A stretch of 64,000 nucleotides of DNA, taken from an uncultured Myxococcales bacterium (GTDB lineage: Bacteria > Myxococcota_A > UBA9042). The translations under genes and the position numbers were made by a program. The stretch spans positions 11,871-75,870 of the forward strand of contig CAISBR010000131.1 in the NCBI GenBank assembly GCA_903883645.1, written 5' to 3'. Below the pieces are notes generated by a model. That model was not told the origin of the DNA and made no database searches. It worked only from the letters and a program-made list of their open reading frames with translations. This document shows, in pieces, positions 11,842 through 64,000 of this stretch (the first letter of the stretch is position 1; the number at the start of each line of letters is the position of its first letter).

Positions 11842-11900
11842 AGGGTCCTCCGAAGCGGTTGCGTCACTCTAACCAGGGCAGCCCAACCGCATTGACCCTT

Positions 11901-47556: not shown

Positions 47557-47668
47557 GCACGGTATTCACCTGAACCAGCACCGAGCTGGCGAAACAGAAT
47601 TGCCCCGAGCGTAGCCAGACTTGGCCGCCACGTCGAGAGGGTGGGCCCGGCTCCATTGGCGTCAGCGC

Positions 47669-48577
47669 CTACCCGGCCACCCGCCCGCCGCGCTCCATCG
47701 GCAGCACCTCCGCCCCACCACCAGGCCCAAGCCCATCAAACCGCCCAAGATCCCCCATGAACGCCGCCGGGCTCAAATGCGCATACCGCAGCGTCAGCTC
47801 GGTCGACTTGTGCCCCAGAATCTTCTGCAGCTTGAACAGATCGCCGCCCGCCATCATCCAGTGGCTAGCGAACGTATGTCGCAGATCATGAAAGCGAATG
47901 TAGTGCGACTGCCGCCCCTGCTCCGGCCGCTTGAACCCCGCCGCGTCGAGCACCTTGTGAAAGCGCTCGCAAAAGATGCGGTCCTTCGACCGGTGCATCA
48001 GCCCCTTGGTGTTCGGAAACAGCAGCCCGCCCGGGCAGCGCAGCCGCCATGCCCGCAAAATCGGCAGCAGCACGTCCAGAATCGGCACATAGCGCACGTC
48101 GCCGGCATTGGTCGGCCCGTCAAAGCTGCGGTCCACGGTGATGATGCGCCGGTCCAGGTCCACGCACTGCCAGCTGAGCGCCGCCAGCTCGCCCTGGCGC
48201 AGCCCGGTGTAGACCGCAGTAGCAAATCGGGTGTAGGCGTCGACGCTATCGTCGTGCGCGGCCCGCAGGAACCGTTGCACCTCCTCGCTGGACCGCAGGT
48301 AGCTGAAGTCCTGGCCGTTGACCCGCACGCTGGGCTTGTCGATGGGCGGCACCGCCAGCAACCAGCCCAGCCGGTGCGCCTGTTTCAGCATCGACCCCAG
48401 CAGAATCAGCAGGTGCCTTAGCATCTGCTTGGACAGGCCGGCGCGCTCGGGCTTGAATACCGCGTTGCGGGCAAGGGCAACGTCTTGCAAGGCCTGCCCA
48501 AGAAGGCCCGGCGCCAACGGCCTGCTTGGCGCCTGCACAGGTGTATCCGCCGGGTACGTCTGCAGATTGGCGCCCAC
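47669..48577 (-). pseudogene. 5'-truncated copy of the tyrosine recombinase (integrase) found at 52375-53508
   Basis: About 90% identical to the full integrase from FKPERAGLS onward (catalytic R...HxxR...Y region intact), but the N-terminal ~125 aa are replaced by unrelated sequence. Confidence 0.7.
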
Positions 48578-48586
48578 CGCCCGCTA

Positions 48587-48605
48587 CCAGGATTCGCACA
48601 GGGCC
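48587..48605. repeat. Degenerate att-like copy of the tRNA-Arg 3' end (ccaggattcgcacagggcc versus cctggattcgaaccagggacc)
   Basis: It sits just 5' of the truncated integrase, mirroring the tRNA/integrase arrangement at 53.5-53.8 kb. Confidence 0.35.
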
Positions 48606-48708
48606 GATGCGCGCGCAGCACTCTGCGGGTGATGGGCCACCGGGACCATGTATGACCGTTGCTGCCACGAGACCGATCGATCATGCCTAAAGTCGCCTAC
48701 AATAACAT

Positions 48709-50076
48709 GTGCTTGTGTGGCATCTTGGCGCTCGTGCCCTGCCAGACTGGCGCAAACACGACCTACTGGTTGACGCCAGCCGCCGCGGCGTCAAGATCGC
48801 CGCTGTCCGCATCGGGCGCGAGGTCACCATGTTCAGGCTTCTGACGGGCATTGGCTGGTTCGTGATGCTACCGATCTTCCTGGTATCGCACGTTTTTCAG
48901 TCGCTATTCGGCAATCGCAGACTTGGATCGACGGCGTGGGATGCCGGCACTGTGCTGCAAGCGTGCATCGCTTTCCACAAGCCGCAAGCGGGCGATCGTC
49001 CTGAAGTCAAAGTTCGGCTGACCGGTGATAGCGACTACGCGCCCGAGTTGCTGCTCTGGCTCGCCGTTCGCGTCATCCAGGACGCAAATGCGCTACGGTC
49101 AAGGTCGCTTACCCCACTTGGCATGGGGGCGCCGGAATACATCGATCTGCTGGACGCGCGCGCGACAAAGCGCCCATCGCAATGGAGTGCCTCCTGGGCC
49201 CCGTACCTTCGTATGATGCGAGCGACCCACGCGCCGTCGGGTCCGATGGCCTACCAGATCGTTGTGAACCTTGTGGCGGGGCAGCGGCGCAACGCCAGGT
49301 GGCTGTGTATGGTACACCTCGAAGGACCGGTGCCTGATGTTGCGCTTGTCGTCGCGCCCTGGATTCTCTGGGACCATCTATCTGCGGTGCTTGAAGCCGA
49401 CCTCTTGGACGAGATCGACTTGTACGTGCACTCCCTTGAAAATAAGTCCAATTTCCCAGTTGGCCACGTAATGGCGGCGCTCTGGGTAAACCGTGTGTTT
49501 GACGCCTATCTCGCATCGTCGGAGGCGAGAGCCGGAGCCAGCCGTCAAAGCGATTCGCCCGCCCCGTATCCCGAAGGCCACAGGGCCCCATCCCACGGCG
49601 CCGCTGTCGCCGCCACGGAACTCGCGGAAGCCATGAGGATCGACGATGTGCTCAGTATGGCCGCTGCCTACCGCGCTGACCAACTTGCAGTCTCATACCT
49701 TGTTCCAGGCGAGCGCGACCCTGCAAGGCGCTGGGTGACGTACCCTGAGTGCAAATTCTGCAAGGAACCGACCAGCAAGACCGGCAACATTGCGAACATG
49801 TTGTTGTCTGGGATCGGCGACCCAGGCGCCTTCCATGACAGGTTCGGCATGGCGTGCTCGCCCCACGCACAAAGGATGACGGCAGAGCTTGCGCCAGATT
49901 TAGGCAATAGTATTCAAGGTCTGCGACAGACTATTGAGAGGGCCCATGTAGAAATGAGGAAACATGCCGAAATTTATGACGTTGACCACCAGTTCGAAAC
50001 AGACGCAACTACGTTGCTCGACCAGCAGCGGCGCGAGAGGGCCGAAGTACTGGGGAGATACGGATTGGCAAATTAG
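48709..50076 (+). CDS. Hypothetical membrane-anchored cargo protein (455 aa)
   Basis: N-terminal TM (FRLLTGIGWFVMLPIFLVSH; probable start MFRLL at 48829); no recognisable motif; lower GC than its surroundings. Confidence 0.45.
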   Translation: MLVWHLGARALPDWRKHDLLVDASRRGVKIAAVRIGREVTMFRLLTGIGWFVMLPIFLVSHVFQSLFGNRRLGSTAWDAGTVLQACIAFHKPQAGDRPEVKVRLTGDSDYAPELLLWLAVRVIQDANALRSRSLTPLGMGAPEYIDLLDARATKRPSQWSASWAPYLRMMRATHAPSGPMAYQIVVNLVAGQRRNARWLCMVHLEGPVPDVALVVAPWILWDHLSAVLEADLLDEIDLYVHSLENKSNFPVGHVMAALWVNRVFDAYLASSEARAGASRQSDSPAPYPEGHRAPSHGAAVAATELAEAMRIDDVLSMAAAYRADQLAVSYLVPGERDPARRWVTYPECKFCKEPTSKTGNIANMLLSGIGDPGAFHDRFGMACSPHAQRMTAELAPDLGNSIQGLRQTIERAHVEMRKHAEIYDVDHQFETDATTLLDQQRRERAEVLGRYGLAN

Positions 50077-50581
50077 GTGACTGCGCAATCGCGTTCGCCG
50101 GCCGCCTTAATTATCCGTGGCGACCACGTCGGAGCGAAGCTTGAATCCGCCCAAATGGTACCGACTTAATGGTGCGGCGCGCGATTTTGGGCCAAGGTTC
50201 GCAACAGCCGCATACTCCCGCAGCGGCACCCCGTGTCATGGGCTTCGTCGCCAAGAGCGCGTAGTGATTCTGAGTTGGCGGCGAATTCCAACCGAAGTTT
50301 GTAGCTGCCGGGCCTCGGCAACTGCCCCGGTCGATTGCTATCCAGCTTGAGCAGAGCTGCTTTGCAACGCGCCTTCACCTGCCAATGTGCGGACCGCCGT
50401 CGCCCACGGCCCGCCGAGGCGGGAACACGGGCCGGCTACCACGAGCGCGAGCCGGTCCGCGCATCGCGCCGCCCGTCGCCCCCGGGACCCTGATCCGCTA
50501 CGAAACCGGTGCCTGCGCCCTGAACACTGGCGTGACCTCCGGCGAGGCCCGCGCATTGGGCTGCAGGCTCGACGCGCTGGC

Positions 50582-50716
50582 CGTCGGTAGCCTGTCCGTC
50601 TGGGAGTTCGAGAACGCCTGCCGTGACGAGTGGCACGCGCTCGGCCGGCCGGCGGACCTGGCGGCCATGGAGCTGATCGAATCGCGGATGTGGGAGCGGC
50701 GGCGGGCGGGGTAGAG
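50582..50716. repeat. Second copy of the ~140-bp duplicated block (see 46851-46990)
   Basis: Direct alignment with the first copy. Confidence 0.6.
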
Positions 50717-50823
50717 CGACACAATCGAGAAGCCCAGTGGGTTACAGTGCTGCGATCTGGGCGGTTTGGTTATCAAGTGGGCAGCAAGTTGCAGCACCCT
50801 GCCCGGAATGCGCCACAACCCAA

Positions 50824-51222
50824 TTACGACACGCGAACCATCCGCGGGGCGATCCAAAGCGCCAGTGCTGCCAACGAGCAACGCTTTGCCGCCACATCTT
50901 GGATTTTTTGGGCAAGCATCGTAGGGCGCACGGAATCGGCAAGTACGAGTCCGTTCGCACCCAAGAACACAATCATTGCTACCGCTGCCAGGCGCTTGTT
51001 GCCGTCTTCAAAGCAGTGCTTCATCGCTGCGAACCACGCGTAAGCTGCTGCTTTTTCGGCGAGTGTCGGATAGTGGTCTTGCCCCGCAAAGCCGGCAGCC
51101 GGCTGTGCAGCGGTACCGTCTGCACAGCCTTGGTGCAGTTCCGGTGGAACCGGGCGACTCTCCATTGCGAAGAGTTGCCGGTGGAGACTGCGGAGCTCAT
51201 CACCGGTTAGGTAGCGAACCAC
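50824..51222 (-). CDS. doc: Doc (death-on-curing) / Fic-family toxin
   Basis: Fic/Doc active-site motif HCFEDGNKR within ...AAYAWFAAMKHCFEDGNKRLAAVAMIVFL; 132 aa. Confidence 0.8.
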   Translation of the reverse strand: MVRYLTGDELRSLHRQLFAMESRPVPPELHQGCADGTAAQPAAGFAGQDHYPTLAEKAAAYAWFAAMKHCFEDGNKRLAAVAMIVFLGANGLVLADSVRPTMLAQKIQDVAAKRCSLAALALWIAPRMVRVS

Positions 51223-51620
51223 TAGGAATTCCCGAGAATTTCAAGGTCCTCTGCGAAGCGGTTCGCTGTATACCGAAACCATTTCGACAACTCGGCGTCT
51301 AGGCCTTCAAGAGGTGGCGAGGCCAAATCTGCTTGGTGAGCGAAAGGCGGCGGGCCGCCGTGCAGATCGACGAGCCCAGTGACGGCTACGCCCACAGCTC
51401 GGCGAACATTGGGAATTTCAACCTCGCACGGGCATGGAGCCACCAAGCCGGCCGTTACTGCGAATGCAAGAACCGTTGTCGTAACTTTTTCCTGCAAATT
51501 TCCACGGCTCCGCTCCCTGTGCGGCCGGGCAATTCGCTTGATTGGCTTCGCCACAGGTGCCGGCCTAAGGTACCCGTCCGCAGTCCAATCACGAATCATG
51601 TAGTCGTTGAAATCACTCAT
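51222..51620 (-). CDS. Hypothetical protein immediately upstream of, and overlapping, doc; candidate non-canonical antitoxin
   Basis: ORF terminates with a 1-nt overlap at the doc start; no similarity to Phd/YefM recognised. Confidence 0.3.
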   Translation of the reverse strand: MSDFNDYMIRDWTADGYLRPAPVAKPIKRIARPHRERSRGNLQEKVTTTVLAFAVTAGLVAPCPCEVEIPNVRRAVGVAVTGLVDLHGGPPPFAHQADLASPPLEGLDAELSKWFRYTANRFAEDLEILGNS

Positions 51621-52234
51621 TTTGTGTCCATGCTTGCGGCAGATGCAGGTGCAACGACCGCCAACTGGTCTAGGAGCGTGCCCAGGGCTGCCGTCGAGAG
51701 CTGAATTCTGACCACCGGCTCTACTGTTGCTTCTCTTGCGGTAGCTCCAGCTCGGCCCAAATCATGACGAGCCCAGGCCGTCAAGTCGTACAAGTCGATG
51801 GAGGCCTGATACCCCGCGTGAACCATCGCGGCAATCGAAAAGTCTACTTTCACTGTGGGATCTGGATCCGCAGTAAACGCCAGCGGGGGAGCACTATTCA
51901 GACCAGACGAAGTCAAAAACTCGCGGACACGCGGTCCGAATTCCCTGCAACTATTCACCACATCCAGCACACGGTCGGCGCTCGTGCGGGCCACGAGCAA
52001 CTGTGTCAGGCCATCGCCCCGGCACTTTGTTTGGCCGAAAAGCACAAGAATGTCTGCTCCGTCGGTCTCGACTGCAACCCGATCCGCAAGGAATCGGCGG
52101 CTTGGTATGGGGAGGTCGGCTAGCGCAAACGAGACTGTTCCGGTGCCAGGCGGCCCAGGAACAATCGGCAATGCAACACCCGTCGCGCGAGTCAGCGAGG
52201 AAGTGTGCGCCAAACCGGCGCCTTTCTTGACCAT
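51617..52234 (-). CDS. Hypothetical protein, first gene of the three-gene doc operon
   Basis: 4-nt overlap with the next ORF; no motif recognised. Confidence 0.35.
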   Translation of the reverse strand: MVKKGAGLAHTSSLTRATGVALPIVPGPPGTGTVSFALADLPIPSRRFLADRVAVETDGADILVLFGQTKCRGDGLTQLLVARTSADRVLDVVNSCREFGPRVREFLTSSGLNSAPPLAFTADPDPTVKVDFSIAAMVHAGYQASIDLYDLTAWARHDLGRAGATAREATVEPVVRIQLSTAALGTLLDQLAVVAPASAASMDTK

Positions 52235-52374
52235 ACTGCCCTAACCTTGCGGGCCAACGCCGAAGCGAACTTAGGCCCTCCTCATCGTAGTAGGCACGCC
52301 GGCGATCGTCAACAGCCAAGTTGCCCGTCTATGTCGAAAATAATGAGCTTTTGCCGATAATTGAGGGGCTTATG

Positions 52375-53508
52375 CTACCCCACCCGCCGCACCCGCCCGC
52401 CGCGCTCCATCGGCAAAACCTCCGCCCCGCCACCCAGCCCAAGCCCATCAAACCGCCCAAGATCCCCCATGAACGCTGCCGGGCTCAAATGCGCATACCG
52501 CAGCGTCAGCTCGGTCGACTTGTGCCCCAGAATCTTCTGCAGTTTGAACAGATCGCCGCCCGCCATCATCCAATGGCTAGCGAACGTATGTCGCAGATCA
52601 TGAAAGCGAATGTAGTGCGACTGCCGCCCCTGCTCCGGCCGCTTGAACCCCGCTGCGTCGAGCACTTTGTGGAACCGCTCGCAGAAAATCCGGTCCTTCG
52701 ACTGGTGCATGACGCCCTTGGTGTTCGGAAACAGCAGCCCGCCCGGGCACCGCAGCCGCCACGCCCGCAGGATCGGCAGCAGCACGTCAAGGATCGGCAC
52801 ATAGCGCACATCGCCGGCCTTGGTCGGCCCGTCAAAGCTCCGGTCCACGGTGATGATGCGCCGGTCAAGGTCCACGCATTGCCACGTCAGCGCGGCCAGC
52901 TCGCCTTGGCGCAGCCCGGTGTAAACCGCAGTCGCAAACAGGGTATAGACGTCGACGTCATCGTCGTGGGCCGCGCGCAAGAACCGTTGGACCTCCTCGC
53001 TCGACCGCAGGTACGAAAAATCTTTGCCGTTGAGGCGCACGCTCGGCTTGTCGATGGGTGGCACCGCCAGCAACCAGCCCAGCCGGTGCGCCAGCTTCAG
53101 CATCGACCCCAGCAGAATCAGCAGATGCCGCAGGGTCTGCTTAGACAGGCCGGCGCGCTCGGCCTTGAACGCCTCGATGCGAGCAAAGGTAATGTCCTGC
53201 AGCTGCAGCTTGCCAAAGGCCGGAGTCAGGTGGGCCCGCAGCCGGGACGCATCGTCGTTGCCGCTGCGCTTGTGGATCGCCCGCGTGGTCATCCACTGGT
53301 GCGATAGGTCGGCAAAGGTCTTCTTGGGCGGCGGGGCGGGCACTAGGCCCTGCTTGGCCGCATTGACGTTGGCGAGGAGCTGGTGGGTCGCCTGCTGGGC
53401 CTCGTTGTAGCTGTCGAAGGTCTTGGACTGCCGTTGGCCGGCGACGTCGTACCAGCGGACCTGCCACTTGCCGCTCGGCATTCGCTTAGGGTGAACTGAC
53501 CGGGCCAT
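52375..53508 (-). CDS. int: Tyrosine-type site-specific recombinase (phage/ICE integrase)
   Basis: ATG 53508 with GGGAGG RBS (MARSVHPKRMPSGKWQVRWYD); catalytic C-terminus ...HDLRHTFAS...LGHKSTELTLRYAH; adjacent to a tRNA. Confidence 0.85.
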   Translation of the reverse strand: MARSVHPKRMPSGKWQVRWYDVAGQRQSKTFDSYNEAQQATHQLLANVNAAKQGLVPAPPPKKTFADLSHQWMTTRAIHKRSGNDDASRLRAHLTPAFGKLQLQDITFARIEAFKAERAGLSKQTLRHLLILLGSMLKLAHRLGWLLAVPPIDKPSVRLNGKDFSYLRSSEEVQRFLRAAHDDDVDVYTLFATAVYTGLRQGELAALTWQCVDLDRRIITVDRSFDGPTKAGDVRYVPILDVLLPILRAWRLRCPGGLLFPNTKGVMHQSKDRIFCERFHKVLDAAGFKRPEQGRQSHYIRFHDLRHTFASHWMMAGGDLFKLQKILGHKSTELTLRYAHLSPAAFMGDLGRFDGLGLGGGAEVLPMERGGRVRRVG

Positions 53509-53737
53509 CCTTGCCTCCCGAAGGGGCAAGCTATCCATTCGTCTCAACTTCTTCTGCTGACAGTTTTGCCGACTTGTCTGTCAGCAAAACGGCCGGGCAG
53601 GGCGCCTTGGGGGCAGCCGCGCCGCGCCGAATCCCCGGTGTCCGAGCTACCCGCGAGCACCTCGAAAAACAGGGGGGGTACGAGCCTCTCGGGCAATTTT
53701 CGGGCAACGACAGGGGGTCAAAATCGAAATTCCCTAG

Positions 53738-53811
<74 letters not shown>

Positions 53812-53915
53812 CCGCCGCGCAGTTTCCTTGCTGCCCGCCCCACAGTCAACGGGCTTGCCCGCTTTGCGTCATCTTGTTACGGTGGAGCGGTGGCCCGCAG
53901 CCACGGCGAACTCCA

Positions 53916-55847
53916 GTGGCCAACCCAGCAGAATCACCAAAGCTTGCCCCCGCGGCCCCTGTCCTTGGCGACGGCGAACTCCCCTTTCGCGTCACCGATG
54001 CCTGCTTGGCGCATTGTGTATTCTGTGCCGAGCATGTTCCGCGCCGCACGCCCGACCTGGCTACCGACGCCGTGCTGGTCCGCCTGCGCGACCTGCTGCA
54101 CCAGCGCATCCCGCGTCGGCTGCTTTTGACAGGTGGTGAGCCGGCTTTGCACCCCCGCCTGCCCGAGCTCATTGCGCTGGCCCGCGCGGCCGGTGTCGCC
54201 GAAGTTGTGCTTGCCACCCACGGCGCGCCGCTGGCCGACGTGGTCAAGCTCGCGACTTGGCGCCAAGCCGGGCTGACGGGCGCGCGGGTGCTGCTTGTCG
54301 CCGCAAATCAAGAAGACGCCTCTGATCTCACACGTCTAGCCGATAGCTGGCGTTGGCAGCGCATGGGCCTATTGGCGGCGCTGCACCACGGTCTGCGCTG
54401 CGAGGTCGAGACGCCCGTACTCACCCTAACTGCGCCGAACTTGCCCGAAATTGCCGCGTGGCTGGCTGCCCTGCATCAGGCCGAGCGCGGTGCCAAGCGG
54501 CCGGGCCTGGCGGGTTGGCGCCTGCTGCCCTACATCAGCCATCCGCCCGGTGCGCCAGCGAATTTGCACGCGCTGCCCAGGACCATCGAGCCCCTGCTGT
54601 TGCAAGCCCTTACCGCCGCGAGCAGTGCCGATCTGCCCCTGGCGCTGCCGCCGAACCAAGGTTGGCACGCCTGTGCTTTCGACGATGTGCACAAGCTCCG
54701 CGGCCTTCTCGCTCGCACATCTGGCGGACTTTCAAGGGTTTACCTGCCCCAGTGCCACGATTGCGCTGTGCGGCAGCAGTGTCCGGGTGTCGAGGCGACG
54801 TTAGCCGGGCAGGGCGGTCCGGACCTGGTGCGGCCGTTTCGCGACGCGCAGAAGGCGGCCTGGCTTCCGCTGCACCGTGGCGGTACCACGCGCACTGCCG
54901 ATGGCCGGGAGCGCAACGTGCAGGTGCCCGTATCCAAAGACGAAGGCCAGGGTCGCGAGGTTCACGAGCTGGTCGTGCGGATTGTGCACCAGTGCAACCA
55001 GCGCTGCGCCTTTTGCTGGGTCGACTTCGAGGCGCCGCGCATGGAGCTCGCCGAAGTAAAAGACCGCGTGGATCAAGGCTTTACGGGCGGTCAGACGCCC
55101 ACGGTGGCCTTCACGGGCGGCGAACCGCTGCTTCATCCGCAAGTGCTCGAGATGATTGCCTATGCTCACGCTTCGGGTGCGCCCACGGTGTCGCTGCAGA
55201 CCAATGCCAGCCGCGTCCGCAGTCTTGAGCACGCTAGGCAGCTCGCCCAGGCTGGCTTGGGGCACGCGCTTGTGTCGCTGCACGCCGCCGATGCCGCCGC
55301 GTCGGACCACCTGACCGCAGCGCCCGGCACGTTTGAGCGGACCGTTCAGGGGATAAGATGGCTTTGTGAAGCAGGTATTTCCGTCACCATCAATCATGTG
55401 CTTACGCGCGATCTGGCACCCAAGTTTGCAGAGTTTGTGCGTTTTGTCGCAAACGAGCTCGCGCACCCCAAGCTTGGCCTGACTCTCGCCGTCGCCGGCC
55501 ACATCGACGCCGGTCCCATCGATCAGGGCGTGCTGCCCACCCACCGCGAACTTGGGCCGTGGGTCGCGCAAGGTGTTCTGCTCGCTAAGGAATTGGGCGT
55601 GCAGGTGGTGGGGCTGCTGCACCCGTGCGGTCTAGTGCCGTGCGCGCTGCCCGACCCGTGGCCCGTGCTCGATGCCGCCACCCTGCGGCCACCCGCTCTC
55701 GACGATTCGGCGGTGCTGCGCGACGGCGGTGTCAAGTCGGCCGAATGTGAGCGATGTGCTCTGAATCGCATGTGTTTTGGTCTGCGGCGCGAATATGTTC
55801 AGGTGCACGGTCTGGCCGAGCTGCACGCGATCGCTCCGCGGAGCTAG
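53916..55847 (+). CDS. Tandem (di-domain) radical SAM protein with C-terminal Cys-rich (SPASM/twitch-like) region
   Basis: Two Cx3Cx2C motifs (CLAHCVFC at ~aa 30; CNQRCAFC at ~aa 350), each followed by a GGEPxLHP segment (LLLTGGEPALHP / VAFTGGEPLLHP). C-terminal CGLVPC...CERCALNRMC. Start uncertain: the track's start (53511) runs through the tRNA, and GTG 53916 is the first plausible in-frame start. Confidence 0.65.
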   Translation: MANPAESPKLAPAAPVLGDGELPFRVTDACLAHCVFCAEHVPRRTPDLATDAVLVRLRDLLHQRIPRRLLLTGGEPALHPRLPELIALARAAGVAEVVLATHGAPLADVVKLATWRQAGLTGARVLLVAANQEDASDLTRLADSWRWQRMGLLAALHHGLRCEVETPVLTLTAPNLPEIAAWLAALHQAERGAKRPGLAGWRLLPYISHPPGAPANLHALPRTIEPLLLQALTAASSADLPLALPPNQGWHACAFDDVHKLRGLLARTSGGLSRVYLPQCHDCAVRQQCPGVEATLAGQGGPDLVRPFRDAQKAAWLPLHRGGTTRTADGRERNVQVPVSKDEGQGREVHELVVRIVHQCNQRCAFCWVDFEAPRMELAEVKDRVDQGFTGGQTPTVAFTGGEPLLHPQVLEMIAYAHASGAPTVSLQTNASRVRSLEHARQLAQAGLGHALVSLHAADAAASDHLTAAPGTFERTVQGIRWLCEAGISVTINHVLTRDLAPKFAEFVRFVANELAHPKLGLTLAVAGHIDAGPIDQGVLPTHRELGPWVAQGVLLAKELGVQVVGLLHPCGLVPCALPDPWPVLDAATLRPPALDDSAVLRDGGVKSAECERCALNRMCFGLRREYVQVHGLAELHAIAPRS

Positions 55848-57805: not shown

Positions 57806-59761
57806 CTACTGCGACGACTTGGCCGCGGCAAATCGCTGGCGCAGCACCGCAAACGTCACACTCAGCGCCAGCCACGTGACCAGCAGAATCACCAACAGGC
57901 GAATCTGGAAGTGTTCTAGGTGGCTATTGCCCTCATCGGCGCCCACAAAGTACCCGGTCGTCTTGCCGTCGCGCAGCACTGGCGCATAGCCAGAAAGCGA
58001 CAAACCCCAAGAATCACGGGTAAAATCGGTGTCAGCCATCGGAATCGCCGCCTTCGACCCCTCGACAATCTGCCCCGACGCCTCGCCCGCGTAGTCGTCG
58101 CCAGGAAGCGAGCCCTTTTCCTCGTCTTCGATCACGCCGTTACCATCCCGATCGACATCCTTTGGATACAGATCGACAACGAACGTGAAGTGCCCCGCCG
58201 CCGTCGCCGGCTTCATCACATAAAGCGACTTGATCTCGGGATCGCGCTGGTGATAGCGCTCGAGCAGCCGGTGTACCCTCAGGAATTCGGGCGAGGTAAT
58301 GCTTTTGCTCGCACCGATGCGGTCCAGATCGTCCGCCGCGATCTGGTTGGCAATCGCCTCTGCCAGACGCGCTTGCGCCGGCCGCATCTCGCGAATCACG
58401 GCGCTGTGCGCAATGGTCCACAGGCCTACACCCACCAGACTGAGCAAAATCGCTAAAATTGTAGTCGCGCCAGCAACTTGCGCGATCGCCTGCTTGCGCC
58501 GCTGGCCGCGGTCCAGGCGCTCGAGCACATCGCCAACGGACTGCGGGCGCTGCTCGGGCCGCTTGGCCAGGCACGCCGCCACCAGCTTCGCCAAGTCGCG
58601 ATCGACCCCTGGCACCAGCGTCTCTAGGTTGGGCGCCGGCGACGAACGATGTAAATCAGCAAGTTCTTGATTGGTTGCAGCCTTAAACGGCACTTTCTTC
58701 GTTAAGCTTACATAGAGAATTACGCCCAGTGCATACAGATCTGTGCGAGCATCGCCGCGCTGACCGTCCCACTGCTCGGGGGCCATATAGGTGGGCGTAC
58801 CGCGCCCGGCCGAGGTCACTTCCCACGGCGCATTGGCACTAACTTCGACCAATTCTTCAGGATTTGGTTCATCGTCATCGACGGCGGCGGCGATGCCAAA
58901 GTCCATGATGACCGCCACTCGCGCATCGGGCACCAGCATGATATTCGCCGGCTTCAGGTCGCGGTGCACCACGCCCGCCTTGTGCGCCGCCCGCAGCCCT
59001 TGGCAAATATTCACTGCAATTGCACGCACTTCAGTAGACGACAGCGGATCGCTGCGCTTGATGCGCGCCACCAGCGTCTCGCCCTCTAGGTGCTCCATCG
59101 TCAGGTAGTGTACGCCGGCCGCCTCGCCCAGGTCGTAAGTACGCGCCACATTAGGGTGATTGATGGCGTGGGCGATCGCCACCTCGCGGCGAAACCGCTC
59201 AAGGTCCTCTTCGGCCAGCTCGGCGCGGTCGGCGAACAGCGTCTTGAGCGCAACCTTGCGCCGCAGCAGCAGATCCTCGCACAGCCACACCGCACCCATG
59301 CCGCCTTCGCCCAGTTTGCTAATCAGCTTATAGCGACCATTGAGCGGCCGCCCCGACGACCAATCGATCGCGCGCACCAGCGGCCGGCGCGGCATCGGAC
59401 GCGGGCGCGGCGGCATTGGCGTGGCCTGGCGCAGACTTCCCGGCCCTGTGACCGGCTTGGGCGGCGGTGGGGGCGGCGGCGTCGGCACGCTCGGCACGGG
59501 GCCACTTGGCGCAGCGGCGGCACCACCGCGCAGGGGCTCGGGTGCGGTCCCCGGTCGCGGCACCACCAGCGGCGGCTGAGTCTGGGCGCGCACTGGCGCC
59601 GGACTCGGCACGGTAGGCGACCAAACACTAGGCTTTTCGTGCAGATTAGCACTAGCAACGGGCGCGCTCGCCGGCAGCTCGGGCCGCTTGGGCATGGGCC
59701 GGGCCGGCAATCGCTGGGGCGGCGGCGCCTTGGGCTGGGGATCGTTCGGCGGCTCGGCCAC
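57806..59761 (-). CDS. Transmembrane Ser/Thr protein kinase with a periplasmic Cache-like sensor domain between two TM helices
   Basis: Pro-rich N-terminus; kinase motifs GEGGMGAVW, VALK, HRDLKPANIML, DFGIA, GTPTYMAPE; TM, ~230-aa extracytoplasmic domain, second TM. GTG start abuts the paralogue's stop. Confidence 0.85.
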   Translation of the reverse strand: MAEPPNDPQPKAPPPQRLPARPMPKRPELPASAPVASANLHEKPSVWSPTVPSPAPVRAQTQPPLVVPRPGTAPEPLRGGAAAAPSGPVPSVPTPPPPPPPKPVTGPGSLRQATPMPPRPRPMPRRPLVRAIDWSSGRPLNGRYKLISKLGEGGMGAVWLCEDLLLRRKVALKTLFADRAELAEEDLERFRREVAIAHAINHPNVARTYDLGEAAGVHYLTMEHLEGETLVARIKRSDPLSSTEVRAIAVNICQGLRAAHKAGVVHRDLKPANIMLVPDARVAVIMDFGIAAAVDDDEPNPEELVEVSANAPWEVTSAGRGTPTYMAPEQWDGQRGDARTDLYALGVILYVSLTKKVPFKAATNQELADLHRSSPAPNLETLVPGVDRDLAKLVAACLAKRPEQRPQSVGDVLERLDRGQRRKQAIAQVAGATTILAILLSLVGVGLWTIAHSAVIREMRPAQARLAEAIANQIAADDLDRIGASKSITSPEFLRVHRLLERYHQRDPEIKSLYVMKPATAAGHFTFVVDLYPKDVDRDGNGVIEDEEKGSLPGDDYAGEASGQIVEGSKAAIPMADTDFTRDSWGLSLSGYAPVLRDGKTTGYFVGADEGNSHLEHFQIRLLVILLVTWLALSVTFAVLRQRFAAAKSSQ

Positions 59762-61651
59762 TCAGTCCTCTCGTTTCCGCGCCGTCTCGTCGGCCAGGCG
59801 CAGCGCGCGCGCGAACTGCCGGCTCGGCGACAACAGCAGCGTAAGCGTCACCATCACGGCCAGTTGCGCCAGGCCCAGCAGCACCGCCAGCCGCGTACGC
59901 AGCGACCCCAGCGTCTCACTCGTCACGTCACAACCCACTAGGTAGGGTGCTTTGGCTTGGCCCACCGGCAGCGGCGAGTAGCCCGAGATCGACACCCGCC
60001 AGCTATCTGCCGAAAAATCCTCGTCTGCCGTCGCTTTGCCCGTGGCCAGCGCTTCGTTCATCGCCGGGTACGGCCCGCTGTCAAACGCCTTGCCGGGCGG
60101 GTCACCCTCTTCGTCGGTATCGGGGTCAATGCGGCCATTGTGGTTCAAATCCTGGCTTTCGTGGTAGGTATCATATACATACGACCACCTCGATGCCGTT
60201 GCCCCAGCGCGGAACACATACAGGTAGTGCACATCGAGATTCTCGGCCTCAATGCGCCGCATCACCGCCTTCAGCTTGGCAAACGCCGGCGTCTTGATGT
60301 CGGCCTCGCTGCGGATCTGGTCGAGCACCGCCGGGTCGAGCTGCCGCGCCGTCAACTCACCTAATCGCCGCAGCGACGGGCGCAATTCGTCGATCACGAT
60401 GTGCGCCGCCAGCGAATAGAGCGCCAGCCCCAGCAGCCCCAGCACTAGCGCCGTCGCCAGCGTACCCAGTACCAGCTGCGCGGCATACGTCTTGCGTCGC
60501 GCCGGCCGCTGCAACCGCTCGATCACCATGTCGATCGTCTGCGGGCGCTTGTTCGGATCCTTTGCCAGGCAATCCGTAACAAGTTCAGCTAGATCCTTGT
60601 CGATCCCCACCGCGAGCTTGGCTACATTCGGCACTGGCGCACTTTTGTGCAGCTCGGCGATCGCCTCATTGCTGTCGGCGACATACGGCGCATCGCCCGT
60701 CAGGCACACAAACAGAATCACGCCCAGCGAGTACACATCGGTGCGCGCGTCGCCGGTCTGCGAATTCCACTGTTCGGGCGCCATGTATACGGGCGTGCCC
60801 AGCCCCGCCGACGTCACTTCCCACGTGCTCGGCGCTTTGCCCTCGGGCCGGCGCGTCATCGACGGCGACTCGATCATCTCCGACACCGCCGCGGCGATGC
60901 CAAAATCCATGATCGCCACTTTGCGCTCGCCGCTCACCAGCATCACGTTCGCCGGCTTCAGATCGCGGTGCACCACCCCCACGCGATGGGCCGCACGCAG
61001 GCCCAGGCACAGCGGAATCGCCATATCGCGCACTTCGGCGCTCGTCAGATTGGGCCCGCGGCGAATGCGGTCCATCAGCGTCTCGCCGCGCAGGGCTTCC
61101 ATGGTGATGTAGTGCACGCCGCCCGCCTCGCCCAGGTCGTACGTACGCGCCACGTTGGGGTGGCTAACACTGTGCGCCATCGCCACTTCTTTGCGCAGGC
61201 GCTCGATATCGGCACTTTCGAACAGGTCCTCGTCCCACAGCGTCTTTACGGCCACTTTGCGCCGCAGCAGCAGGTCTTCGGCCAAATACACCGTGCCCAT
61301 GCCGCCTTCGCCCAGCTTGTCGACCATCACATAGCGGCCCGACAGGGGTTTGCCCGAGGTCCACTCAATGCGCGTCACCTTATGTGTCAGCGGCTTGCGC
61401 GGCGGCGGCCGACCTCCCGGCACCAGCCCAGCGGGCGGCGGCGTCAGCAGCGGAATATTCGACTGCGGTTGCGGCGCGGCGGGCACCACATCCATCGGCA
61501 TCGTCGGCAAGAAGTCGTTTTCGGGCGGCGGCGGCGGCGGCGGTGGCGGTGGCGGCTCGGTGGGGCGTCGCCCAGGGCCCGCGCGCGTAGCACTGAGCGG
61601 CGGTCTCGCCGGACCGGTACCTGCATCGCGGTTGTTGGGATCGTTCGCCAT
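59762..61651 (-). CDS. Paralogous transmembrane Ser/Thr protein kinase with a periplasmic Cache-like domain
   Basis: Start re-called to ATG 61651 (MANDPNN; GAGG RBS) by paralogy with the downstream kinase. GEGGMGTVY, VAVK, HRDLKPANVML, DFGIA, GTPVYMAPE; Cache-like YLYVF...NHNGRIDPD...SWRVSISGYSPL. Confidence 0.85.
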   Translation of the reverse strand: MANDPNNRDAGTGPARPPLSATRAGPGRRPTEPPPPPPPPPPPENDFLPTMPMDVVPAAPQPQSNIPLLTPPPAGLVPGGRPPPRKPLTHKVTRIEWTSGKPLSGRYVMVDKLGEGGMGTVYLAEDLLLRRKVAVKTLWDEDLFESADIERLRKEVAMAHSVSHPNVARTYDLGEAGGVHYITMEALRGETLMDRIRRGPNLTSAEVRDMAIPLCLGLRAAHRVGVVHRDLKPANVMLVSGERKVAIMDFGIAAAVSEMIESPSMTRRPEGKAPSTWEVTSAGLGTPVYMAPEQWNSQTGDARTDVYSLGVILFVCLTGDAPYVADSNEAIAELHKSAPVPNVAKLAVGIDKDLAELVTDCLAKDPNKRPQTIDMVIERLQRPARRKTYAAQLVLGTLATALVLGLLGLALYSLAAHIVIDELRPSLRRLGELTARQLDPAVLDQIRSEADIKTPAFAKLKAVMRRIEAENLDVHYLYVFRAGATASRWSYVYDTYHESQDLNHNGRIDPDTDEEGDPPGKAFDSGPYPAMNEALATGKATADEDFSADSWRVSISGYSPLPVGQAKAPYLVGCDVTSETLGSLRTRLAVLLGLAQLAVMVTLTLLLSPSRQFARALRLADETARKRED

Positions 61652-61852
61652 ACCTCGCCCTCGGAGTCTAGCGTGCGACGCAGCGAGCCGGGCGTCAAGC
61701 CGGCGCGGTTGGCTCCGTGGCGCCAGGTCGTGCAACCCCGCATCGCAACAGTGGACTGCATGCGCCAGTGGCAATGGCTTCTGGATTGTCGTAGCCTGCA
61801 AAATGGCTGCAAGCGCGTTCCGCTTGCCCCGACACTACTAGGAGGACCGCCG

Positions 61853-64000
61853 ATGCCGGTCGCCAATTGTCAGAATAATCATGGAATTCTAGGCGCTTTG
61901 CTGTGCTTGGCTCTCAGCCTCGCCGCGTGCAACGGTTCCGACATCAACCTTGGAGCGACTGGTGCCCCGGGCAAGCCGATCGCGACAGGCAGCGACGTCA
62001 GTGGCACGCAACCTAGCGAGTCAGTTTGCTTAGCCGATGCCGATTGTGCCGCCTTGGCCAAGACCGCCTGTTCTGTGGCTTTTTGTGAACCTGCGTCAAA
62101 GCGTTGTGTCGTAGCGGCCCGACCCGATGGTGCGGCGTGCGACGACGGCGACCCGTGCAGCGGCGAGTCGCTCTGCGCGAGTGGCGCTTGCCGCGCGAGC
62201 CATGCGGTCGACTGTGACGATAAAAATCCTTGTACTACAGATACTTGTGCGGTCGATCTGGGCTGCAGCCACACCGCGGTCGATGCCCCCTGCAGCGACG
62301 GCAACGCTTGCACGACCGGCGACCATTGCGCCGCCGGGGTCTGCGAGTCGCTGTCCAACGTGTGCAGCTGCGGCAACGATGCCGACTGCGCCGCCTTTTC
62401 GCCCGACAAGTGCTCAGGTTCACTGCAATGTTCCGCTGGTGTGTGCGTCGCCAACCCCGCCAGCAAGATCGACTGCAGCGACAGCAACCCGTGCACCGTA
62501 GACGCGTGTATCCCCGCCACTGGCTTGTGCCAGCACGACTTAGCGGCCACGGGCCAACCCTGCGACGACGGCGACGTGTGCACCTTTGGCGAGACCTGCC
62601 AAGGCGCGACGTGCAAGCCCACCTCTACTCTAAATTGCCAAGGCGGGGCAGGGCAGTGCACCCTCGCTTGCGACAAGAAGCTGGGCTGCTCGGCCCCAGC
62701 CGGCGGCGCGCTACCCTGCGACGACGGCAACACCTGCACCAAAGACGACACCTGCCATAGCGGCGTGTGCGTGGGCGCGCCCAGCTGCGGCTGCCAGGTC
62801 GACAGCGACTGCAGCAGCGCCAATGTGCCCGCTTGCCAAGGGATTGCGGTTTGCAAGGCCGGTCAGTGCATGGTCGACGTAGGCTTGGCTGTGCCGTGCA
62901 CCCAAGACACCGCGAGTTGCATTCAGGCGGCGTGCGGTAGCAAAGGTTGCGAAAAGCTTAGCACTCCCGATGGTGGAACCTGCAGCGACGGCAACCCGTG
63001 CAGCTTGGGCGACCACTGCCAGAGCGGCAGTTGCCAAAGCGCGGGCCAAGACGGCTGCGACGACAGCAACCCCTGCACCAGCGACGGCTGTGTGCCCAGC
63101 AAGGGCTGCGTCCACGTGGCCGCCAGCGACAACCAGCCGTGCGACGACGGCGATGTCTGCAGCCAGGGCGATGCCTGCCAAGCCGGCAAATGCCAAGGCA
63201 AAACGGGTCAGTGCGACGACAAGGACCCTTGCACCATCGACGTGTGTGCACCGCTGACCAAGGCCACGTGCCTCCACGACCAGCGGCCCGAGGGCGCGGC
63301 CTGCGACGACGGCAACCCCTGCACCGTGGGCGGCGCCTGCACCAGCGGCACGTGCGTGCCCACGCAAATCCTCGACTGCGATGACCAAAGCCCTTGCACC
63401 GTCGACGTTTGCTTGCCCGAGGGCTGCACCCACACCGCGCTCGCCACCGACGTGAGCGTGGCGTGCGACGACGGCGACAGCTGCACCACCAGCGACCTGT
63501 GCAACGGCGGCGCGTGCCAAGGCCAGCCCGGCGCGTGCCAGTGCCAAAACGACAGCGATTGCGCAACCTTTGAAGATGGCAACCTGTGCAACGGCACCTT
63601 GCGCTGTATCGAGCACGCCTGCGCCGTCGACCCGGCCACCATGGTCGGCTGCCCCGTCTCGCAAAACCCGTGCACGGTGGTGCAGTGCCAGCCGGCGATC
63701 GGTATTTGCCAAGAATTGCCTGTACCTGTAGATGTTACGGCCACCACCTGCGACGACGGCAATGCCTGCACCGTGGGCGACGCGTGCGGCATCGGCGGCG
63801 TGTGCCTGGGTGGTAACCCGTTGAATTGCGACGATAGTAATGTCTGCACCCAAGACAGCTGCGACCCCGCCGGCGGCTGCGCCTACCTACCCTGGGACGT
63901 GAGCGCCCTAGTGCCCTGCGACGACGGAAACCCCTGTACATTCAGCGATGTATGTGGTGTTGGCGCCTGCCAGCCCGGCACACAGGCCTGCGAGTGCACC
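61853..64000 (+). CDS. Cys-rich repeat lipoprotein (CDDGNxCTxGDxCxxGxC / DCDDxNPCTxDxC repeats), 5' portion; continues past the window end
   Basis: ATG 61853 with AGGAGG RBS 7 nt upstream; lipobox LCLALSLAAC; 716 or more codons open to the window edge; 20 or more repeats resembling the Myxococcus cysteine-rich repeat. The opposite-strand ORFs 61879..62856 and 62711..63853 are rejected. Confidence 0.75.
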   Translation, partial: MPVANCQNNHGILGALLCLALSLAACNGSDINLGATGAPGKPIATGSDVSGTQPSESVCLADADCAALAKTACSVAFCEPASKRCVVAARPDGAACDDGDPCSGESLCASGACRASHAVDCDDKNPCTTDTCAVDLGCSHTAVDAPCSDGNACTTGDHCAAGVCESLSNVCSCGNDADCAAFSPDKCSGSLQCSAGVCVANPASKIDCSDSNPCTVDACIPATGLCQHDLAATGQPCDDGDVCTFGETCQGATCKPTSTLNCQGGAGQCTLACDKKLGCSAPAGGALPCDDGNTCTKDDTCHSGVCVGAPSCGCQVDSDCSSANVPACQGIAVCKAGQCMVDVGLAVPCTQDTASCIQAACGSKGCEKLSTPDGGTCSDGNPCSLGDHCQSGSCQSAGQDGCDDSNPCTSDGCVPSKGCVHVAASDNQPCDDGDVCSQGDACQAGKCQGKTGQCDDKDPCTIDVCAPLTKATCLHDQRPEGAACDDGNPCTVGGACTSGTCVPTQILDCDDQSPCTVDVCLPEGCTHTALATDVSVACDDGDSCTTSDLCNGGACQGQPGACQCQNDSDCATFEDGNLCNGTLRCIEHACAVDPATMVGCPVSQNPCTVVQCQPAIGICQELPVPVDVTATTCDDGNACTVGDACGIGGVCLGGNPLNCDDSNVCTQDSCDPAGGCAYLPWDVSALVPCDDGNPCTFSDVCGVGACQPGTQACECT

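Follow-up and report, generated by a model that had tools for sequence, protein, structure and literature searches.

The gene next to the tRNA-Arg(TCT) in this window (the whole 64-kb stretch of DNA that was analyzed) encodes a tandem radical SAM protein, in which a module made up of a radical SAM core, a GGEP motif and a cysteine-rich tail occurs twice. Judged from its sequence, the 643-aa product is a soluble enzyme, encoded monocistronically on the core chromosome of an uncultured Myxococcota bacterium. The chemistry that we infer for it is that of a two-step radical enzyme working on a polyol-type molecule together with a Gfo/Idh/MocA oxidoreductase partner, and neither that of a peptide maturase nor that of genomic-island cargo; the probability of this reading is put at about 0.45, a little short of even odds. 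The gene is real, intact and a conserved core gene, and its neighbors in the window are uninformative on function. Two-core single-chain radical SAM enzymes are almost unstudied, and here a whole family has that layout.

Two radical SAM modules in one chain

The features used in the analysis are given below in their order along the window.

53737..53811, minus strand: tRNA-Arg(TCT), found with ARAGORN; context only, the attachment point of a variable island to the left
53916..55847, plus strand: coding sequence of the tandem radical SAM protein, 643 aa, GTG start, stop codon included in the end coordinate
53976..54530, plus strand: N-module radical SAM core, residues about 21-205 (PF04055 at residues 26-169; partial barrel in the AF2 model)
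54003..54026, plus strand: first CX3CX2C (C30, C34, C37), predicted to ligate module 1's SAM-binding [4Fe-4S] cluster
54132..54143, plus strand: first GGEP, residues 73-76, module 1's SAM 'GGE' motif (G73, G74, E75 and P76 invariant)
54672..54782, plus strand: module 1 auxiliary cysteines, C253 (in G-x3-C) and C280-x2-C283-x5-C289, invariant in 40/40 sequences
54846..54962, plus strand: inter-module linker, residues 311-349 (AF2 pLDDT <50 at 322-347)
54963..55505, plus strand: C-module radical SAM core, residues about 350-530 (PF04055, 80.3 bits on the C half)
54993..55016, plus strand: second CX3CX2C (C360, C364, C367), predicted to ligate module 2's SAM-binding [4Fe-4S] cluster
55116..55127, plus strand: second GGEP, residues 401-404 (G401, G402, E403 and P404 invariant)
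55626..55775, plus strand: module 2 auxiliary cysteines, C571, C576 and C611-x2-C614-x5-C620, all invariant except C571

Translation from the GTG at 53916 gives the database protein P0001 (643 aa) with 100% identity and coverage. The open frame extends, stop to stop, upstream to 53511 and overlaps the tRNA-Arg(TCT) on the minus strand, and it is this tRNA that sets the upstream limit of the gene. An alternative start at TTG 53874 is possible; no conclusion depends on the choice of start. No signal peptide or transmembrane segment was seen in the 643-aa protein, and a scan for promoters and terminators gave no signal above the shuffled expectation.

An earlier note on this DNA, made by reading the sequence, had proposed two complete radical SAM cores in a single polypeptide that arose by internal duplication. 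The motif strings that it quoted are all found, in the frame it gave, in the translation of 53916-55844. CLAHCVFC supplies C30, C34 and C37, with LLLTGGEPALHP at residues 69-80; CNQRCAFC supplies C360, C364 and C367, with VAFTGGEPLLHP at residues 397-408; and the CGLVPC...CERCALNRMC segment holds C571, C576, C611, C614 and C620. The presence of two cores is borne out by PF04055, which is detected twice. The model scores 115.5 bits in two stretches of the whole protein and, with the halves searched separately, 38.2 bits (N) and 80.3 bits (C) against a Pfam gathering cut-off of 29.5. The duplication is upheld as well: BLASTP of residues 1-330 against residues 331-643 returns E = 9e-10 with 27% identity over 164 residues, a similarity that by this comparison exceeds chance. 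When all halves are aligned jointly, seven cysteines per half fall in register and the halves match end to end. On average, N halves share 33.5% identity with one another and C halves 43.5%; an N half compared with a C half averages 25%. Because the last value is alike for halves of the same protein and of different proteins, the duplication appears to be ancient and, on these identities, is older than the family.

In the AF2 model the N-module core is a partial barrel of alternating strands and helices, mostly at pLDDT >90. The model is a confident one: for the whole chain, a pLDDT of 88.4 and a pTM of 0.81 imply a defined packing of the two halves, and the modules appear to pack as an intramolecular pseudo-dimer. 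Despite its low pLDDT, the linker is the best-conserved segment among close orthologues (85-87% identity, dN/dS 0.06-0.12).

The C-terminal cysteines had been read in the earlier note as compatible with a SPASM or twitch auxiliary-cluster domain. A cysteine-rich tail is indeed present, in fact one per half: C253, C280, C283 and C289 form an equivalent N-half tail that the first reading missed, and they align in register with C576, C611, C614 and C620. The tails, however, are only SPASM/twitch-like, as the SPASM HMMs find nothing; neither PF13186 nor the SPASM model matched the whole protein, either half or the isolated tails. The isolated tails match only HxsC and HxsC4, with E about 0.03-0.04. 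The SPASM family (PF13186, TIGR04085) has a motif of seven cysteines (CX9-15GX4C ... CX2CX5CX3C ... C), and a twitch is a reduced set that binds one cluster. Each tail here consists of G-x3-C followed by CX2CX5C, with four invariant cysteines; the fourth cysteine of CX2CX5CX3C and the downstream cysteine are absent. By its cysteine spacing the pattern resembles a one-cluster, twitch-like remnant, and the module 1 set probably binds one auxiliary [4Fe-4S] cluster. C571 is not universal and is replaced by threonine in P0034-P0040.

Conservation and spread of the tandem family

Conservation was followed in an alignment (A1) of 40 sequences, P0001-P0040, with the window protein as the first row; P0016 and P0032 lack the N terminus. 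The window protein shares all 34 invariant columns. The C-module core is rich in them, including QTN 428-430, H456 and D464. Down to about 27% identity, each homologue with a complete N terminus retains all 14 cysteines and both GGEP motifs. In keeping with the earlier note's two-core reading, the second CX3CX2C is conserved in 40/40 sequences and both triads in the 38/38 that are N-terminally complete. Ratios of dN/dS against orthologues run from 0.06 to 0.25 across all segments and from 0.13 to 0.25 in both halves, which indicates purifying selection on each half.

The tandem radical SAM family is defined here by two modules, each with CX3CX2C, GGEP and C...CX2CX5C, in about 600-650 aa; the window protein has both motif sets twice. 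A wider sample comprised 180 proteins, taken as representatives at 50% identity. The second CX3CX2C occurs in 179 of them, and both Cys motifs are doubled (the 2+2 layout) in 122, so that the full layout spans at least about 120 clusters at 50% identity. The family also occurs in one-and-a-half-, three- and four-module versions. The earlier description of such proteins as uncommon thus holds in part: the architecture is uncharacterized, but it is not rare in metagenomes. The family is without a curated model, a solved structure or a paper, and a literature search on tandem or double radical SAM domains led only to work in the contexts of FbiC, Tes and Mmp10.

The N module shows more variation. 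Its CX3CX2C is missing in 28 of the 180 proteins; among about 20 of these that were aligned, most are full length, the GGE is often missing too and the N-half C...CX2CX5C is retained. The 'TN(G/A)' ribose motif of the N module is THG in the window subclade (the window, L009, L012 and L013) and TLG or SIG in the next clade. These motif changes, along with loss of the N triad in distant members, suggest that the second active site may be altered or dispensable.

The tRNA locus and the partner genes of orthologues

In L005, L006, L009, L012 and L013 the orthologue adjoins the same tRNA. The integrase and island sit on the opposite side of the tRNA from the tandem gene. L005 and L006 have an identical gene and identical downstream genes with different island cargo. 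In L009 tRNA and gene stand together with no integrase, and in L013 none is obvious. Proximity to this integration hotspot had been taken as functionally suggestive, a hint that does not survive the comparison, since the tRNA-Arg adjacency is kept with or without an integrase and the cargo varies beside identical genes. No second copy of the tRNA 3' end, allowing up to 3 mismatches, was found in the window. The envelope genes fare no better as a clue. The lipoprotein and putative barrel genes run convergently to the tandem gene, and their synteny reaches only as far as relatives of at least 65% identity; the downstream gene overlaps the stop codon of the tandem gene, and the convergent orientation means that the pair is not co-transcribed with it.

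These data bear on a reading of the gene as cargo of the tRNA-Arg island, for example as a viperin-like defense gene, possibly tied to the lipoprotein and putative barrel. It does adjoin a tRNA flanked on the far side by an integrase, and PADLOC pVip models reach 78 bits. The PADLOC hits are, however, generic viperin matches confined to the radical SAM core, the NCBIfam viperin model (NF038283) scores 62.4 bits against a cut-off of 180, and the envelope genes are convergent. With the island across the tRNA, identical genes beside different islands and integrase-free loci, island cargo is already contradicted by synteny, as far as gene order can tell, and is scarcely credible.

The earlier note saw no obvious precursor peptide, and a search for small ORFs (at least 20 aa) between the integrase and the gene agrees, giving none. 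ORFs in that interval that were considered as precursors were antisense or overlapping artifacts only. A Pfam survey of 20 long ORFs in window positions 1-41,000 found ordinary chromosomal genes and one unrelated radical SAM gene, with no obvious pathway partner.

Across the wider orthologues, surveyed at 40% identity or above, the recurrent partner is a Gfo/Idh/MocA oxidoreductase. Its gene overlaps or directly follows the tandem gene in L003/4, L010/14, L011/17, L015 and L016, and it is fused C-terminally in L001/2, L019-21, L030, L092 and P0017-26. In the partner profile GxGxxG, EKP and D-x3-H are invariant, and the EKP/D-x3-H signature, of inositol-dehydrogenase type, aligns to an inositol 2-dehydrogenase. 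The best PDB matches of the profile are inositol and scyllo-inositol dehydrogenases, and the best NCBIfam matches are UDP-GlcNAc 3-dehydrogenase and inositol 2-dehydrogenase. This sugar-type dehydrogenase gives the family a clear, testable genetic partner. A literature search pairing radical SAM with the MocA family found no relevant paper.

Other neighbors are more restricted. A 1184-aa NodU-like carbamoyltransferase is encoded directly upstream of the fused form in one subclade (L001/2, L019-21), and in L092, L022 and L023 the 3' end of the gene is overlapped by a gene for a Gate-domain ('nucleoside recognition') membrane protein. Orthologue neighbors are otherwise housekeeping genes such as priA, prfB, nadC and birA. 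An adjacent Gfo/Idh/MocA gene was not found beside the window gene or in L009, L012, L013 or L018, so for the window subclade and L018 the partnership is an extrapolation from relatives that are 40-51% identical. Within the 64-kb window, tblastn with six queries (Gfo/Idh/MocA, p162, UbiA) found no homologue, and carbamoyltransferase, Gate, PMT_2 and DUF483 queries found no match.

Proposed chemistry and rival readings

In the proposed mechanism, each CX3CX2C would hold a SAM-cleaving [4Fe-4S] cluster, the GGEP would bind SAM and each Cys tail (G-x3-C ... CX2CX5C) would hold one auxiliary [4Fe-4S] cluster. With a core, a GGEP and a Cys tail in each module, the motifs lead one to expect up to four clusters and two 5'-deoxyadenosyl-radical sites per protein. 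Two sequential radical reactions on one substrate, as the earlier note suggested, are plausible with this layout. Both steps would begin with hydrogen abstraction from a sugar, nucleoside-sugar or cyclitol, and the auxiliary clusters would accept or relay electrons, as they do in twitch/SPASM dehydrogenases. A Gfo/Idh/MocA secondary-alcohol oxidoreductase that depends on NAD(P) would be the partner. Most orthologues have it fused or translationally coupled; in the window lineage it would have to be encoded elsewhere or be lost.

The closest solved relative is BlsE (cytosylglucuronate decarboxylase, PDB 7vob), which acts on a sugar-nucleoside. BlsE is a single module of about 330 aa. The tandem protein scores 82 bits against a cut-off of 400 for TIGR04466 and has no blasticidin-type gene context. 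The highest NCBIfam score belongs to MoaA (GTP 3',8-cyclase, TIGR02666) at 122.2 bits, against a cut-off of 284.05. MoaA has two [4Fe-4S] clusters, the C-terminal one binding its nucleotide substrate. It is likewise a single module, and its auxiliary motif is CX2CX13C as opposed to CX2CX5C with an upstream cysteine; PF06463 (Mob_synth_C) has no match in the window protein. Also among the matches are BtrN (4m7s), SpeY (7wzv) and anSME, twitch/SPASM dehydrogenases with a radical SAM core and a nearby auxiliary cluster as electron acceptor, from which the window protein differs in being tandem and in leaving the SPASM HMM unmatched. Enzymes of this type act alongside NAD-dependent inositol-type dehydrogenases in aminocyclitol pathways, and the pairing of radical SAM and Gfo/Idh/MocA proteins is one that we take to resemble spectinomycin biosynthesis. 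An established case of a single polypeptide with two complete radical SAM domains, and the precedent for this layout, is FbiC (F0 synthase, a CofG-CofH fusion). There, however, the domains come from two different radical SAM families and lack C...CX2CX5C auxiliary tails, whereas the halves of the window protein are mutual paralogues with two such tails. CofG, CofH and FbiC models were not among the best 25 NCBIfam families listed.

The protein could instead mature a peptide or protein in the manner of HxsC or of SPASM/twitch RiPP enzymes, with its precursor encoded elsewhere in the genome and each module making one of two modifications or one crosslink. Behind MoaA, the highest-scoring specific NCBIfam models for both halves are HxsC4 (NF038332, 115.1 bits) and HxsC (TIGR03977, 100.3 bits), and the place of these peptide maturases among the best models counts against a small-molecule substrate. 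The Cys tails weakly match the C termini of HxsC and HxsC4, and SkfB, SuiB, CteB, anSME and PqqE are structural and sequence neighbors. HxsC and HxsC4 each have an N-terminal radical SAM cluster and a C-terminal CxxC-type second cluster, and HxsB and HxsC are two-cluster enzymes that mature HxsA (PMC13128918). Paralogues at 27-29% identity occur in multi-radical-SAM clusters with HxsD (PF27806) and small ORFs. The scores are nevertheless far under the curated cut-offs of 267.9 (HxsC) and 500 (HxsC4), both of which describe single-module proteins. HxsD is found only beside those distant paralogues; the gene and its orthologues of at least 40% identity have no HxsA (with its His-Xaa-Ser repeats), HxsB, HxsD, RRE/PqqD or small ORF beside them. 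Where HxsC is partnered by a repeat peptide, the conserved partner here is a sugar-type dehydrogenase, and the neighbors are housekeeping genes. A maturase is thus rather unlikely.

A different possibility, itself unlikely, keeps only the C-terminal module catalytic and makes the N module a decaying duplicate, a scaffold for an auxiliary cluster serving electron relay or substrate binding, so that one radical reaction would take place. The N half is less conserved (33.5% vs 43.5%) and matches PF04055 more weakly (38 vs 80 bits), TN(G/A) has become THG in the window subclade, and the N-half C...CX2CX5C is kept in the roughly 20 that were aligned of the 28 family members without the N-half triad. 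Yet none of the 38 N-terminally complete homologues at about 27% identity or more departs from the N-half triad or GGEP, dN/dS of 0.13-0.25 speaks for purifying selection, and the best match of the family profile to both BlsE and MoaA is the N half. Less probable again, and quite unlikely, is a role in tetrapyrrole or cofactor biosynthesis, as a fused AhbC/AhbD/NirJ-like pair or in a group VI nitrogenase-like (NFL) pathway. Sub-threshold matches to AhbD (90 bits), NirJ2, AhbC, NirJ1 and NirJ, and a distant PDB match of the partner profile to biliverdin reductase, lean that way, and relatives from Elusimicrobia (25-28% identity) adjoin NifH-like and NifD/K-like genes. Those loci are group VI NFL, for which a tetrapyrrole-derived cofactor has been proposed (bioRxiv 10.1101/765248). 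The scores, however, fall far under the 500-650-bit cut-offs and below those of MoaA and HxsC, Nif-like genes are absent from the window and from the surroundings of orthologues of at least 40% identity, and the partner's EKP/D-x3-H signature aligns to inositol 2-dehydrogenase. Heme O synthase is encoded two genes downstream in L003, in one species only.

The two-step radical enzyme with a polyol-type substrate can be set in a wider frame, offered tentatively and with some doubt. The family would be a modular one with two independent SAM-cleaving sites and two auxiliary clusters in a chain that, with its dedicated inositol-dehydrogenase-like partner and in some lineages a carbamoyltransferase, builds a new housekeeping metabolite or cofactor in uncultured Myxococcota, by chemistry akin to that of the group VI nitrogenase-like radical SAM suites. 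The product, once found, would add a new multi-cluster radical reaction pair and could illuminate the radical SAM clusters in which paralogues sit, both those linked to HxsD and the group VI nitrogenase-like ones. The group VI loci with their radical SAM 'suite' were described by Meheust et al. 2020 (bioRxiv 10.1101/765248), and their function was still unknown in 2026 (PMC13474568). These papers describe no two-module radical SAM protein; such NflH/D/K loci in Elusimicrobia and aquatic Myxococcales do carry relatives at 25-28% identity with the two-module layout.

Two duplicated radical SAM modules in one chain

The tandem radical SAM (rSAM) gene lies beside a tRNA gene:

52375-53547, minus strand: tyrosine integrase (PF00589), beyond the tRNA-Arg gene and upstream of the tandem rSAM gene
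53737-53811, minus strand: tRNA-Arg(TCT)
53916-55847, plus strand: tandem rSAM gene, 643-aa product

In the six-frame ORF list the stop-to-stop frame is 53511-55847 (plus strand), and because its first 300 nt overlap the tRNA, the true start has to be downstream of the tRNA. The GTG at 53916 gives the 643-aa product, which is identical over its full length to the database protein P0001, already called on four metagenomic contigs. A TTG at 53874, 14 codons upstream, is an alternative candidate, with no effect on any later result. The motif strings quoted in an earlier note, a reading of the sequence alone, are all found where it placed them in the translation.

The internal duplication with two rSAM cores claimed in that note is real. 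Residues 1-330 align with residues 331-643 by BLASTP (E = 9e-10, 27% identity across 164 residues), the Pfam Radical_SAM model proposed there as a check matches the protein twice, and each half tested singly exceeds the curated threshold of 29.5 bits (38.2 for the N-terminal and 80.3 for the C-terminal half). In a joint alignment of N and C halves from 40 homologues, the window's halves match end to end, with seven of seven cysteines in register (C30/C360, C34/C364, C37/C367, C253/C576, C280/C611, C283/C614, and C289/C620). The note was right about structure and slightly understated the case: it placed a Cys-rich tail at the C terminus only, and the same tail is also found in the N-terminal half, so each module has the layout CX3CX2C, then GGEP, then G-x3-C ... 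CX2CX5C. SPASM models, also suggested there, match neither the whole protein, nor either half, nor the isolated tails. Judged by their motifs, the tails are best described as SPASM/twitch-like, with CX2CX5C and the upstream G-x3-C and without the remaining SPASM cysteines. No curated family claims the protein, and the best NCBIfam models all score far below threshold: MoaA reaches 122 bits (cut-off 284), HxsC4 115 (500), and HxsC 100 (268), followed by AhbD, TIGR04053, StsB, NirJ2, and BlsE.

A search of 5.8 billion proteins returned ~40 homologues of full length, roughly 600-680 aa long with a subset of ~940-1000 aa, which where named come from Myxococcales, Myxococcota, or "Deltaproteobacteria" metagenome-assembled genomes (MAGs). 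Both rSAM cores and both four-Cys tails are conserved across the homologue alignment: among the invariant columns are both GGEP motifs, C253, C280, C283, C289, C576, C611, C614, and C620, as well as C360, C364, and C367, the second CxxxCxxC on whose conservation in orthologues the note had staked its reading. C30, C34, and C37 are missing from two entries only, both N-terminally truncated. Mean identity is 33.5% among the N halves and 43.5% among the C halves, and N-versus-C identity is 25% within one protein and between different proteins alike, so the duplication predates the family radiation, and each half has since evolved on its own. Purifying selection acts on N and C halves alike, with dN/dS against orthologues of 59-81% identity of 0.13-0.25 (N) and 0.15-0.17 (C), rough values given that dS is near saturation. 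The most conserved part among close orthologues is the intermodule linker at residues 311-349 (54846-54962; 85-87% identity, dN/dS 0.06-0.12), which may be where a partner docks.

A confident two-barrel model was obtained with AlphaFold2 on the homologue alignment (pLDDT 88.4, pTM 0.81, whole chain); it has two partial barrels of strands and helices, with a low-confidence, predicted disordered linker (residues 322-347) between them. For a chain of two modules, so high a pTM suggests that the halves pack in a defined way, as an intramolecular pseudo-dimer. In three independent rankings the nearest solved structure is the cytosylglucuronate decarboxylase BlsE (Foldseek E = 1.8e-10; profile-versus-PDB E = 4e-26), followed by MoaA, GDGT-MAS, AbmM, NifB, viperins, DesII, SkfB, SuiB, anSME, and PqqE. 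With small margins between matches, this ranking is only a weak pointer to sugar or nucleoside substrates.

An exhaustive profile search of 1.84 billion cluster representatives found at least 150 clusters with strong matches (at least 362 bits), most of them full length. Motifs were counted in 180 proteins, the 40 homologues and 140 new representatives. Two CX3CX2C and two CX2CX5C motifs occur in 122 of the 180; the N-half CX3CX2C is absent in 28, some of them truncated. Many of the aligned proteins without the N triad are full length and have also lost the GGE motif while keeping the N-half auxiliary cysteines. P0206 (923 aa) has three modules, with three copies each of CX3CX2C, CX2CX5C, and GGEP, and P0156 (1318 aa) has four CX3CX2C motifs. 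By these motif counts the architecture is an undescribed modular family and not a one-off. Other variants in module number or in the N module include P0170, P0181, and P0188 (~1030-1070 aa), P0136, P0200, and P0209.

The tRNA-Arg locus

The tandem rSAM gene is effectively monocistronic. Downstream, a convergent gene for a 143-aa lipobox protein (LVLAAC) overlaps its stop codon by 4 nt, followed by a 491-aa secreted protein whose sole Pfam hint is a nonsignificant porin match (E = 0.036) and by two Ser/Thr kinases. On contigs with the identical rSAM protein these downstream genes are the same and the DNA upstream of the tRNA differs. In the upstream 10 kb, locus L006 matches the window (a Fic-family gene and two integrases) and L005 carries a different integrase (409 aa), a resolvase, an MqsA-like antitoxin, Trypsin_2, and DUF5906. 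The tRNA-Arg site is an active integration hotspot. The adjacency of tRNA and rSAM genes is kept in L009 (65% identity) and in L012 and L013 (77%); no integrase is found among the called genes of L009, and there is no obvious one in L013. Since downstream DNA is constant, upstream DNA is variable, and the adjacency persists without an integrase, the tRNA is an integration site, with the rSAM gene on its core side. Synteny of the lipoprotein and putative barrel genes is confined to the close subclade. The hotspot and the envelope genes, offered earlier as a functional hint, therefore find no support as such, the more so as the cargo varies.

The kinases (57806-61801, minus strand) are tandem paralogues with proline-rich N termini, and the start of a 2360-aa Dicty_CTDC-repeat protein (61853-64000, plus strand) is divergent from them; this arrangement of kinase pair, Dicty_CTDC-repeat gene, and rSAM gene is kept in all close relatives.

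Partner genes in relatives and a possible reaction

The informative context lies in orthologues of 40-51% identity, not in the window's neighbors. A sugar-type oxidoreductase of the Gfo/Idh/MocA family is a recurrent, often fused partner: its gene overlaps or abuts the rSAM 3′ end in L003/4, L010/14, L011/17, L015, and L016, and it is fused to the rSAM C terminus in L001/2, L019-21, L030, L092, and P0017-P0026. Across nine aligned partners the Rossmann GxGxxG is invariant, as are EKP and D-x3-H motifs, the latter two aligning in HMMER with the same motifs of the inositol 2-dehydrogenase 4hkt. In Bacillus inositol dehydrogenase the catalytic triad is Lys, Asp, and His. Inositol and scyllo-inositol dehydrogenases are among the best PDB matches, and the best NCBIfam matches are UDP-GlcNAc 3-dehydrogenase and inositol 2-dehydrogenase. 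In L001/2 and L019-21 the gene immediately upstream of the fused form encodes a 1184-aa NodU-like carbamoyltransferase whose C-terminal part weakly matches DUF483; in L092, L022, and L023 the rSAM 3′ end is overlapped by the gene for a "nucleoside recognition" Gate-domain membrane protein; and a PMT_2 glycosyltransferase is directly upstream in a 31% relative. The remaining orthologue neighbors (priA, prfB, nadC, birA, and heme O synthase) have housekeeping functions. None of these four partner types occurs within the 64-kb window, and the adjacent dehydrogenase is absent from the window's own subclade and from L018.

In L001 the NodU/CmcH-type carbamoyltransferase gene (6398-9952) lies upstream of the fused gene at a distance of 49 nt; in HxsD-type clusters the equivalent upstream position is taken by a stand-alone DUF483-like protein.

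The best overall explanation, with a probability of about 0.45, is a four-cluster, two-site rSAM enzyme that acts on a polyol-type small molecule with an oxidoreductase partner. The two-module architecture by itself is very likely; the substrate class (a sugar, nucleoside-sugar, or cyclitol) is tentative. The protein would carry four [4Fe-4S] clusters, and two SAM-cleaving sites would each start hydrogen abstraction on one such molecule. The auxiliary clusters may accept or relay electrons, as they do in enzymes of the BtrN/anSME type, and the partner would contribute an NAD(P)-dependent step, either ketoreduction or the oxidation of an alcohol.

An HxsC-like peptide maturase with a remotely encoded precursor is an unlikely alternative; an ORF search found no plausible precursor beside the gene, in agreement with the earlier note. 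A PqqD domain can serve as a RiPP recognition element, and the only RiPP-type domain noted near any orthologue of at least 40% identity is the PqqD-family gene of L092 (2611-2958, minus strand), 7 kb upstream of the fused orthologue on the opposite strand and probably unrelated to it. Somewhat less likely again is a single active site with a decaying N module, a reading favored by the change of the N-half TN(G/A) to THG in the window subclade and by the relatives lacking the N-half Cys triad; purifying selection acts on both halves. A tetrapyrrole or cofactor role ranks just below this. Island or defense cargo is very improbable, being contradicted by the synteny and by viperin models that score below threshold.

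A precedent for two such domains in one protein is FbiC, a two-domain radical SAM protein that uses two 5′-deoxyadenosyl radicals (PMC11917521). Two-domain rSAM proteins are thus known in principle, whereas the tandem-duplicate layout with a predicted auxiliary cluster per module is undescribed, having no curated HMM, no solved structure, and no paper in full-text searches. The protein is a clean, testable enzymology target, its function here being read from relatives.

Distant paralogues and other features of the window

Relatives at 27-29% identity (Minicystis rosea DSM 24000 and Byssovorax and Archangium MAGs) belong to very large clusters that contain ~10 radical SAM genes, two tandem rSAM paralogues, HxsD (PF27806), and a DUF483-like protein. 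The antiphage effector HxsA is matured by HxsB and HxsC (PMC13128918). Relatives at 25-28% in Elusimicrobia have NifH-like and NifD/K-like genes next to them, that is, they sit at group VI nitrogenase-like loci, where a large set of radical SAM proteins was described by Meheust et al. (bioRxiv 10.1101/765248) and whose product a 2026 review (PMC13474568) still gave as unknown. These loci show that the rSAM module is reused in multi-rSAM pathways. The HxsD and Nif-like links do not transfer to the window gene because it has none of those neighbors.

One such ~10-rSAM cluster is L008 1-21884 (also L034-L039 and L053, including Minicystis rosea CP016211), with rSAM-methyltransferase and rSAM-AhpC/TSA fusions, 73-aa and 96-aa ORFs, a conserved unknown protein of 876 aa, and a PMT_2 glycosyltransferase. 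Nif-like genes within a few kb of tandem rSAM relatives are found in L072 (1-4202; also L024, L054, L070, L075, L077, L079, L080, L082, and L090), mostly Elusimicrobia.

In the window's island, the variable DNA left of the tRNA-Arg, the integrases at ~47669-48538 and 52375-53547 (both minus strand) have a common 300-nt repeat (47678-47977 and 52390-52689, 95% identity), and a second segment is repeated at 46851-46987 and 50575-50710. The region 46851-53547 looks like two related integrative elements in tandem; the window holds no second copy of the tRNA 3′ end. After a Fic/Doc-family ORF (50824-51222, minus strand, 132 aa) come, in the same orientation, overlapping ORFs of 132 aa and 205 aa without Pfam match, and the group (50824-52234) may be toxin-antitoxin-like cargo. 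At 45324-45608, within the island region, a 57-nt unit recurs ~5 times in tandem, the copies being 66-73% identical to the reference one.

Another rSAM gene (34037-35737, plus strand; PF19864 Radical_SAM_N2 and PF04055) adjoins a ~1500-aa ORF (region 34037-39519, plus strand) that carries eight Cys-rich, Stig1-like repeats as well as 20-nt repeats whose spacing is a multiple of 129 nt (36028-37598). Genes for multiheme c-type cytochromes (c3/c7/NapC-like) and for a cytochrome b561 fusion at 8420-11868 (minus strand) fit an anaerobic or microaerobic respiratory lifestyle.
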